A program made the translations under genes and the position numbers. A stretch of DNA of 64,000 nucleotides, from the sequence record MW822008.1; one strand, 5' to 3'. Shown here in pieces: positions 19,371 to 20,060 of this stretch. How positions within the stretch are numbered: position 1 is the first letter of the stretch; each line of letters starts with the position of its first letter. The notes beneath the pieces are model-generated. The model worked only from the letters and a program-made list of their open reading frames with translations, made no database searches and had not been told where the DNA came from. This DNA comes from Escherichia phage BF17.

Positions 19371-19390
19371 TGGGACATTATATGTTCCAA

Positions 19391-19399
19391 TGATATAAT
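19391..19399 (+). promoter_or_regulatory. extended -10 promoter element (TGATATAAT)
   Basis: TGaTATAAT; the same element recurs at 31100, 34706, 47045, 50105. Confidence 0.4.
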
Positions 19400-19920
19400 G
19401 TATATAGAAAATGACAACGGACATTGAAAAATGGACACTGAGAACCTACTTCTCTTGAAAATGTAAAGGATAGATGAGCTTTACCGTTGTAGCGAACAGC
19501 AGAAGAAACCTGTTAGAGTACTGGCATTCAAACAAACACGATGTAAGACCACGAATCACGGCGACACGGCTGTATAAAGAACTCCGATAAGCATACAGAG
19601 AGTTCCTAGATAGATGTATAAGGTTCGCACCTTACCAGATTTGCTAAGGGAGTTCAAGAATAGCGGACGCAATTTTTACAAGAAAGTTGCGTCCAAAATT
19701 TGAGAACAAGTACTACTTTGATCGAATAGAGTTAGTACTGAGTGCTGTTGATGAAAAGACCAGCGACCGTTGCATATGACTGCGATAGAGAGAAACCGAG
19801 CAACCCGCTTTCGCTCTCTAAATTTTGGTACAAGAAAGATCCGTCCAAAATTTGAGAAATTCGCAATTCGATAATATCCGATGCCATCATCGTCAAGAGA
19901 GACTTAATTGTCTCTTTTTT
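19400..19920 (+). ncRNA. candidate non-coding RNA locus (GC-richer island, no long ORF)
   Basis: About 0.5 kb with no ORF of 60 aa or more, visibly higher GC, 8-bp perfect hairpin GGACGCAA/TTGCGTCC at 19665-19694, direct repeat at 19690 and 19841, terminator at 19898-19920. Confidence 0.3.
19898..19920 (+). terminator. intrinsic terminator
   Basis: AGAGAC-ttaatt-GTCTCT followed by TTTTTT. Confidence 0.5.
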
Positions 19921-20060
19921 ATTACCTTCATTCCCCTGCGGGGGGATGTAATAGTCCTCAACAAATCCCGTCAAGTTTTTAAAGTACATTATCATTTTCA
20001 GAAGGAACTAGTTTACGAAGTAAACGCAGTGACTTCTTGAGTTACGAGAGAACGAAGTGA

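Follow-up and report, generated by a model that had tools for sequence, protein, structure and literature searches.

Structured RNAs that are both large and deeply conserved are rarely found, and nearly every class so far has opened new biology, be it ribozymes, RNP machines, or RNA cages. ROOL and GOLLD, large "ornate" RNAs of Firmicutes phages and prophages, form RNA-only homo-oligomers (PMC12286853). The RNA described here is predicted from sequence and, in our best reading, is comparable in kind to ROOL and GOLLD. Like them, it is large (0.5-0.8 kb), intricately folded, phage-carried, and stand-alone, with no fixed neighbor gene. Loop-strand pairings in ROOL and GOLLD can be intermolecular, as might a 7-bp pairing in the new RNA. 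Unlike ROOL and GOLLD, whose Rfam models gave no match even at E = 10, the new RNA belongs to enterobacterial jumbo myoviruses, lacks a tRNA neighborhood, is multicopy per genome, and also occurs in integrase-borne islands.

Other known RNAs share some of these features. OLE RNA has a similar size (~600 nt) and likewise many unpaired bases that are invariant. A GA motif beside helix P2 of the new RNA, possibly kink-turn-like and seen only by eye, also recalls OLE RNA. However, the Rfam OLE model gave no match, genes for OapA/B/C are not nearby, and the taxa and context are different. The phi29 pRNA, too, is a structural RNA that a phage encodes and transcribes from an early promoter, and its covariation-supported "pseudoknot" is in fact intermolecular and builds a ring. 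Unlike the new RNA, pRNA is 174 nt long and comes from a phage with a protein-primed genome, and the Rfam pRNA model gave no match; T4-type packaging motors function without RNA. Bacterial RNase P RNA is similar in size, contains a loop-strand pseudoknot, and has look-alike strings (AGAUGA... and CAGAA..CCCG.U.A). We rejected RNase P, including circularly permuted forms, because no RNase P model matched, the new RNA has no CR-I box and no GGAAAGUCC box, and the candidate "P4", a CCCG/CGG helix, forms locally as a hairpin whose cap varies, unlike the long-range P4 of RNase P. In PA5oct, a related jumbo phage, four ncRNAs are supported by RNA-seq (PMC7318152). We tried ncRNA001 and ncRNA002 of PA5oct as relatives and found no homology by nhmmer --max or covariance model.

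The window that we analyzed comprises 64,000 nucleotides of Escherichia phage BF17 (MW822008.1). Its ORF list leaves a gap at 19371-20060, bounded by an ORF ending at 19370 and an ORF starting at 20061. The 6 kb around the locus match Escherichia phages vB_EcoM_G17 and Sharanji at 99.0% identity and PBECO4, phAPEC6, SP27, and 121Q at 97-99%. By this similarity, the phage is an Asteriusvirus jumbo phage of the PBECO4/121Q/G17 type; the G17 record is assigned to Asteriusvirus, whose members are RaK2-like jumbo myoviruses with ~350-kb genomes. The 690 nt of the gap are 100% identical in phages whose flanks are at 97.8-99%. For Turkey5 and A4, the nucleotide identity of the RNA element is 86% and 80%, while the adjacent downstream protein is 46-47% identical. 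The element is under strong purifying selection. Windowed GC bore out the earlier note's description of a GC-rich island, with values of 0.405-0.42 in 200-nt windows across 19400-19899 compared to 0.24-0.33 in the flanks.

That note had also counted no ORF of 60 aa or more, which is incorrect. The ORF list contains ORFs of 87 aa (19732-19995, minus strand), 71 aa (19825-20040, plus strand, TTG start), and 67 aa (19235-19438, minus strand), none of which is conserved. Could the gap nonetheless hold small protein-coding genes or a decayed gene, as GenBank records such as 121Q_516 and G17_00407 imply? The 87- and 71-aa ORFs and the "hypothetical protein" annotated in some records fit this reading; in G17, the locus is flanked by two "hypothetical" genes and a short minus-strand "hypothetical protein" is annotated inside. 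However, the longest ORF switches strand and frame among 32 homologues, tblastn matches are broken across frames, indels are not multiples of three, and substitutions in helices are compensatory. We therefore consider a coding origin hardly credible. A conserved protein-coding gene in relatives, which the earlier note held would count against an RNA, was not found among the 32 homologues or by tblastn. A candidate short peptide from GGGGGGAUG was discarded, as its frame is broken by a 1-nt indel between paralogues. Other phage genomes carry the element in unannotated gaps or under tiny dubious ORFs. The locus exposes a systematic annotation error, in which GenBank puts "hypothetical proteins" on the RNA or leaves a gap.

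A promoter scan of the plus strand identified a -35-like GGGACA at 19372-19377 and, after a 16-nt spacer, an extended -10 element (10/12 matches overall). The extended -10 sequence, TGATATAAT, lies at 19391-19399, where the earlier note had placed it, and the predicted transcription start is near 19406. TATAAT and its TG are kept ahead of all 25 copies in one alignment (A2), many of which also have GGGACA. Judged from these sequences, the promoter is of the sigma-70 type, is conserved, and has an extended -10 element. It is an early-type promoter.

Downstream, nhmmer identified one copy of the element within the window (19440-19985), and a covariance model (R1) placed the core at 19708-19897 with 156.9 bits. 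The predicted RNA runs from 19406 to 19975 on the plus strand and would be ~520-570 nt long. Transcripts may exist in a short form that ends at a U-run (~19921, ~516 nt) and a long form that ends at 19975 (~570 nt). When compared to shuffled sequences, the fold has z = -4.8 on the plus strand and z = -2.5 on the minus strand.

Covariance-model scans, which the earlier note had proposed, matched no known family. Across the whole window, Rfam 15 (4227 models, including ROOL, GOLLD, OLE, raiA, HEARO, RNase P, tmRNA, 6S, group I/II introns, RNAI, and pRNA) gave no matches at gathering thresholds. At E values up to 10, pieces of 591-1001 nt yielded only chance-level matches to snoRNA, miRNA, and lncRNA models, and Rfam scans of bacterial copies and one divergent copy yielded nothing. 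ARAGORN found no tRNA or tmRNA genes in the window. E. coli genomes contained no similarity or complementarity to the RNA beyond two island copies, a search in which short antisense seeds would escape at such a database size. Our literature search, which included the CBB and phAPEC6 genome papers, the account of the PA5oct ncRNAs, large ncRNA surveys, and a recent ncRNA-mining preprint, found no description of the RNA. The family is apparently undescribed and uncatalogued.

To derive the structure, we used successive alignments of 25, 32, and 56 non-redundant copies, in which invariant sequence blocks alternate with helices that vary by compensatory change. Compensatory substitutions, which fit the plus strand only, maintain ~15 helices, among them a 7-bp pseudoknot and those of a tight three-way junction; ~60 unpaired nucleotides are invariant or nearly so. 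Among the 32 sequences, 88.8% of cells were paired compared to 34-46% in controls with slid partners, and 60 of 82 pairs had changes on both sides. The 56 sequences gave 94.3% paired cells compared to 35-45% in slid controls, a contrast that is inflated because the structure was derived from these same aligned sequences. Both-side changes occurred in 46 of 62 pairs, and none of 500 shuffles reached the observed values; the number and variety of compensatory pairs are independent of the structure having been derived from the same sequences. G-U pairs are frequent, occurring in 37 of the 56 sequences at one P10 pair. Read on the minus strand, such pairs would turn into A-C mismatches, so that they fit the plus strand only.

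One explanation of such covariation is that the structure acts as single-stranded DNA, for example as a priming or assembly site on a displaced strand, as covariation with G-T pairs would fit folded plus-strand DNA equally. We regard this as very improbable. A conserved promoter lies ahead of the aligned copies, and we know of no single-stranded DNA site of this size with such elaborate tertiary pairing.

The 5′ domain (19446-19652, plus strand) consists of P1-P6 and a 3-bp tertiary pairing. P1 (19446-19448/19471-19473 and 19451-19456/19466-19470) encloses the loop GAAAAUGUA and has both-side changes in 8/8 pairs. P2 (19478-19480/19491-19493) is followed by P3 (19496-19500/19569-19573, both-side changes in 4/5 pairs), inside which lies P4 (19510-19513/19558-19561) with its variable cap. 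P5 (19579-19584/19600-19605) has both-side changes in 5/5 pairs, the tertiary pairing joins 19564-19566 to 19615-19617, and P6 is formed by 19619-19624/19629-19634. The invariant GCUAAGGGAG (19643-19652) separates this domain from the 3′ core.

The 3′ core takes in hairpins P7 and P12 along with the segment 19744-19872. Hairpin P7 (19709-19739) presents the loop AUCGAAU (19721-19727), which pairs over 7 bp with AUUCGAU at 19866-19872, ~140 nt downstream of the loop (A5 columns 651-657/809-815). This pseudoknot is 99.7% paired in the 56 sequences, with compensatory changes in 7/7 pairs, and single positions show all of AU, UA, GC, and CG. The pairing could be an intramolecular pseudoknot or, equally, an intermolecular kiss, since covariation is indifferent to the two. 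The segment 19744-19872 comprises P8 (19744-19747/19761-19764), the invariant segment GACCGUUGCAUAUGAC (19765-19780), a three-way junction, and the 3′ strand of the pseudoknot. Compensatory changes occur in all three junction helices: P9 (19781-19785/19861-19865, 99.3% paired), P10 (19788-19792/19808-19812, 99.3% paired), and P11 (19815-19818/19854-19857, 97.8% paired). P10 is closed by an invariant 15-nt loop, AAACCGAGCAACCCG (19793-19807).

Two further hairpins are optional. The earlier note had pointed out a perfect 8-bp hairpin and a direct repeat, and both are present: GGACGCAA (19665-19672) pairs with TTGCGTCC (19687-19694), and 19671-19706 matches 19821-19858 with 89% identity over 38 nt (E = 1e-7). 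Sequence comparison indicates that each repeat arm forms the 3′ half of a hairpin module and that the two modules are homologous, optional, and peripheral. Copy 1 (19652-19707) follows GGGAG and contains the 8-bp hairpin and the first repeat arm, while copy 2 (19819-19853) contains the second arm and caps P11. Copy 1 occurs in the window, in Turkey5, A4, and BF, and in bacterial copies; Mimasvirus copies have a short GCC-AGAAAU-GGC hairpin in its place. Copy 2 is present in Asteriusvirus locus-A and Mimasvirus copies and absent from BF_a, EJP2, and Kae01. Lineages thus have both modules, one, or neither, and in this respect the modules resemble the interchangeable elements at the periphery of large RNAs.

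Compensatory pairing is thus well above controls, and the locus has its own promoter and no conserved reading frame, as is typical of structured ncRNA genes. Judged by the conserved promoter, the strong strand-specific covariation, and the pseudoknot, the locus is a single large structured RNA gene. The earlier note had suggested one or more structured RNAs; the structured RNA stands, and the locus holds one of them, of ~520-570 nt, rather than several. We favor, with moderate confidence, the reading that this is a stand-alone large structured ncRNA gene, transcribed early by host polymerase, whose product works in trans and serves as a scaffold, ribozyme, or oligomer. Invariant unpaired bases, a pseudoknot, a junction, and swappable modules mark RNAs with structural or catalytic roles in trans. 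In such a scheme, host sigma-70 RNA polymerase would transcribe the RNA early in infection, the RNA would fold into a compact two-domain architecture, and it would then act in trans as an RNP scaffold, a ribozyme, or a homo-oligomer.

The 3′ end of the RNA is less simple than the earlier note had proposed. Hairpin P12 (19880-19897) pairs GAUG (19880-19883) with CGUC (19891-19894), and its segment ends with a first CGUCAAG motif (19891-19897). It is followed by a terminator-like hairpin and U-run (19898-19921, plus strand), as the note had stated: AGAGAC/GTCTCT at 19898-19915, then a T-run to 19920-19921. Although a simple terminator scan did not list this hairpin, it covaries in relatives (helix 17; both-side changes in 4/6 pairs). 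However, it is not the universal 3′ end, because ~15 of the 56 copies lack it while a later block is always kept. This block (19933-19975) consists of P13, then AUGUAAUAGUCCUCAACAAAUCC, then a second CGUCAAG motif (19969-19975). P13 is the CCCC-TGC-GGGG hairpin at 19933-19945 that the note had reported, a C4/G6 hairpin (19933-19936/19940-19945) whose C-G to U-G changes fit the plus strand only (helix 14). Past the hairpin, the block has the consensus AUG.AA.....CUC..CAAA.C.CGUCAAG. The conserved C4/G6 block, with A+T-rich DNA after it at the 3′ end, suits a cis element or origin as well as or better than an RNA acting in trans. Two elements beyond the block are of uncertain membership in the RNA: a hairpin, GUUUAC-GAA-GUAAAC (20011-20025), that covaries by eye (GUUAUC...GAUAAC in A4), and the motif AACGAAGUGA (20051-20060), which adjoins the ATG of the next ORF and recurs after most copies.

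The 3′ strand of P12 and the terminal motif share their sequence and change together in four lineages. Both are CGUCAAG in the main type, CUUCAAG in RaK2, CGACAA in one Serratia island, and ACGAAG in a divergent metagenomic type. P12 itself still pairs in other lineages, through GA(C)AG with CUUC in RaK2 and UUUCG with CGAAG in the divergent type. Either both motifs pair with the 5′ strand of P12, as a switch or an intermolecular strand swap, or one factor or reaction recognizes both. For a helix between the terminal motif and the 5′ strand of P12, fixed-column counts fit an alternative helix and an identity constraint alike. Possibly, the element is a giant riboswitch or attenuator in which the two CGUCAAG motifs compete for the 5′ strand of P12 and so decide termination. 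The terminator-like hairpin just after P12 is in keeping with such a cis-acting leader, as are the co-changes in four lineages, which fit mutually exclusive helices, and the extension of the element to the ATG at 20061 in the window. However, a riboswitch or leader would be expected at a constant position before functionally related genes, and the downstream genes are unrelated among copies. The next gene is convergent in several phages (BF, Munch, and EJP2) and islands, and roughly one copy in four has no terminator hairpin. We judge a leader quite improbable and return to the RNA acting in trans as the preferred reading.

We next consider where the RNA gene occurs. By blastn, the element is present in 71 phage records, all of RaK2-like phages (Asteriusvirus, Mimasvirus, Eneladusvirus, Alcyoneusvirus, and unclassified relatives). 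It is recognizable in other genera, with 66-72% identity to the window element over 430-490 nt. A metagenome scan added ~50 further copies, among them the divergent type, which lies on phage contigs and shares only the 3′ core at the sequence level.

Full-length homologues were also found by nhmmer and covariance model in the chromosomes of Citrobacter amalonaticus, Serratia fonticola, Serratia sp., Enterobacter chinensis, Silvania hatchlandensis, and Buttiauxella and in two enterobacterial MAGs. Two of 5426 complete E. coli genomes contain the RNA. The bacterial copies lie directly downstream of a large serine recombinase or tyrosine integrase, in small islands at varying chromosomal sites (ppdD-hofB, corC, rof-tilS, and ffs-ybaA). 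Their neighbors vary: some copies have a CI/S24 repressor with a Ner-like regulator, others two ParB-like genes, and others conflict-system cargo (mSLOG-DUF4326, DUF488, and DuOB). No replication or satellite hallmark proteins were recognized in the islands, and the lack of a recognizable replication gene there would suit a cis element or origin as well as or better than an RNA acting in trans. No protein partner co-occurs with the RNA. Since the RNA is kept in islands without jumbo-phage proteins, its partner would be host-encoded, or the assembly would be RNA only.

In a distance (neighbor-joining) tree, bacterial and phage copies interleave, indicating that the RNA gene has moved repeatedly. 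The earlier note had offered a remnant of a mobile insertion as one interpretation. This holds in part and in a different sense: it is the RNA gene that has moved, between phages and bacterial islands. A transposable or repeat element was rejected, as the copies are at syntenic positions and co-oriented in 12 genomes and the alignments contain no terminal inverted repeats. A related explanation is that the element is a selfish or hitch-hiking module that spreads between phages and islands, either as a satellite cis signal that exploits the jumbo phage or as an island decoy against the phage RNA. This would account for the interleaved tree, for the position of the RNA beside an integrase in three island types together with a CI/Ner switch or defense-type cargo, and for the genomic location in phages, which varies by lineage. 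However, the copies are syntenic and stable across genera, without terminal repeats or target duplications. Selfishness also accounts for the spread and not for the conserved fold, and it is compatible with an RNA acting in trans or with an origin rather than an alternative to them. As an explanation in its own right, we consider it improbable.

All RaK2-like phages carry the element, in 2-4 or more copies per genome. Copies are located at ~37.9 and 304.9 kb in PBECO4, at 59.9, 110.6, and 195.8 kb in fEgEco12, at 30.3, 174.6, and 258.9 kb in BF, and at 35.3, 177.5, and 261.5 kb in GAP32; one IMG/VR genome has four. In 12 of 12 genomes checked, all copies are in one orientation. The downstream genes differ among copies, and many lineages share one site, which has the gp46/47-endoVII genes on one side and the baseplate hub on the other. 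The shared orientation and conserved map positions fit a cis-acting DNA or RNA element, such as an origin, as well as or better than a product acting in trans. The same applies to the copy that is always beside recombination genes and the baseplate hub.

The main rival to the preferred reading is that each copy is a replication origin, in which a ~0.55-kb structured transcript made by host polymerase primes leading-strand synthesis. By analogy with ColE1 RNA II and T4 R-loops, the G-rich 3′ block would stay hybridized to the template beside A+T-rich DNA, and replication of the islands would fall to host enzymes or to an infecting jumbo phage. ColE1 RNA II and the T4 oriE, oriF, and oriG transcripts resemble the new RNA in combining a host-polymerase promoter with a structured transcript of ~0.55 kb, followed by a conserved G-rich block and A+T-rich DNA. 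The length from promoter to origin in ColE1 matches the RNA length. A further likeness to T4 origins is that a phage genome has several copies, with one close to the baseplate hub, which T4 oriE also adjoins. Other points in favor are the early-type promoter, the presence of three or more copies that point the same way and are evenly spread over conserved, syntenic positions (~30, 175, and 260 kb), the copy between gp46/47-endoVII and the baseplate hub, the invariant block with its G6 run beyond the optional terminator, and the absence of an identifiable replication protein in the islands.

Against an origin, most copies have a hairpin and U-run ahead of the putative hybrid site, unlike ColE1 RNA II. 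The new RNA has no homology to the ColE1 and T4 origin RNAs, with no Rfam RNAI or ColE1-like signal, and its fold is far more elaborate and deeply conserved; we know of no primer RNA with so elaborate a fold, with a pseudoknot, a three-way junction, and invariant loops. None of 72,556 PLSDB plasmids carries the element, which led us to reject a plasmid replicon and, with it, a ColE1-type origin recognized by its occurrence on plasmids; for origins in general, this absence is unexpected if host enzymes suffice. On balance, we judge the origin model unlikely. If it is true, these would be the first replication origins for the RaK2-like phage group. Under the preferred reading of an RNA acting in trans, the multiple gene copies would instead serve dosage.

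The presence of the same RNA in jumbo phages and integrase-borne islands points to a phage-island relationship, as satellite or defense. Tentatively, we propose a new class: a large pseudoknotted RNA that RaK2-like phages need in multiple copies and that islands have captured to parasitize or block these phages, with a biochemical role, as part of the same joint proposal, as a ribozyme, an RNA-only assembly, or a replication-priming RNA. We hold this broader proposal less firmly than the trans-acting role itself. If it is true, the islands would represent the first RNA-based satellite or defense link for jumbo phages. The RNA is present in cultivable E. coli phages (PBECO4, 121Q, phAPEC6, and G17) and in E. 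coli, Citrobacter, and Serratia chromosomes. Because its carriers are cultivable E. coli phages and host chromosomes, its function is directly testable in the model host.

Lastly, we asked how far a simple motif pair would extend the family. The broad pattern GACCGTTGCA-N(20-32)-GCAACCCGC, considered as the mark of a universal RNA, matched 96 bacterial contigs from many phyla in a scan of one genome per species, for which we estimate that ~56 chance matches would be expected. We rejected a universal RNA, as the matches are mostly due to chance. When 18 pattern loci were compared to Rfam at gathering thresholds, only unrelated 16S rRNA and tRNA off the pattern sites were found. Five identical GC-rich IMG/VR pieces with the pattern are also chance matches. 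By nhmmer, only nine of the pattern loci, all enterobacterial, are genuine members of the RNA family.

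The RNA family is not confined to RaK2-like phages. In enterobacteria, full-length homologues of the phage RNA are located on small chromosomal islands, where they adjoin an integrase of the serine or tyrosine type. These homologues include L088 (3554-4116), L117 (3689-4149, minus strand), L128, L048, L097, L101, L081 and L061, together with an island of E. coli LR-29-1 (L154, 16001-16583). The islands occupy differing insertion sites and carry, beside the RNA, a CI/Ner switch, pairs of ParB-like genes, or cargo of the DUF4326/DUF488/DuOB kind. Carriage is rare in E. coli, as only two of 5426 complete genomes contain a homologue. 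A divergent subfamily was identified on five ENA metagenome contigs (L175, L192, L194, L195 and L209), which are phage sequences encoding a Dda-like helicase, an exonuclease and structural proteins. Members of this subfamily retain the 3′ core with its pseudoknot, while the 5′ domain is of a different build.

The motif CGUCAAG occurs twice in the RNA, once in the 3′ strand of hairpin P12 (19891-19897) and once at the end of the element (19969-19975). The two copies co-vary across four lineages; RaK2 has CUUCAAG at both sites, a Serratia island has CGACAA, and the divergent type has ACGAAG. Possible explanations for this pair are formation of an alternative helix, RNA processing, or recognition by a protein.

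We also compared the family with the two highly expressed ncRNAs of PA5oct, a related jumbo phage (L155, 8263-8498 and 21951-22401), both of which are GC-rich and devoid of ORFs. Neither nhmmer nor the covariance model revealed a relationship between these ncRNAs and the window RNA family, and they may therefore constitute a separate large-RNA class.

In many GenBank records, one to four "hypothetical proteins" overlie the RNA gene; at the homologous locus, such records include 121Q, G17, A4, SHEFM2K, SD-*, JP4 and others. Such annotations probably reflect spurious gene prediction. A 218-aa ORF (17905-18561, plus strand), located 0.8 kb upstream of the RNA gene, is annotated in relatives as an HNH endonuclease. 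Judged only by its size and by this annotation, the ORF looks like a free-standing homing-type HNH; the same two features disfavor an IscB-like RNA-guided enzyme. Other neighboring genes, at 16796-17948 and 20522-20962, were assigned from annotation in related records. By such records, the neighbors include an acyl-carrier-protein-like ORF, an Rz-like spanin pair encoded by overlapping ORFs, and a Dps/"starvation-inducible DNA-binding"-like ORF.

Downstream of the RNA, the motif (T)GAACGAAGTGA (20051-20060) directly precedes an ATG at 20061, and it recurs 75-110 nt 3′ of most RNA copies. A connection is possible with the second promoter type of CBB and GAP32, which has the −35 sequence TGAAACG (CBB genome paper). 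Elsewhere in the window, a 37-nt stretch (52568-52604) shares 81% identity with the RNA's terminator-like hairpin (19895-19931); most likely it is simply a further terminator built in a similar way.
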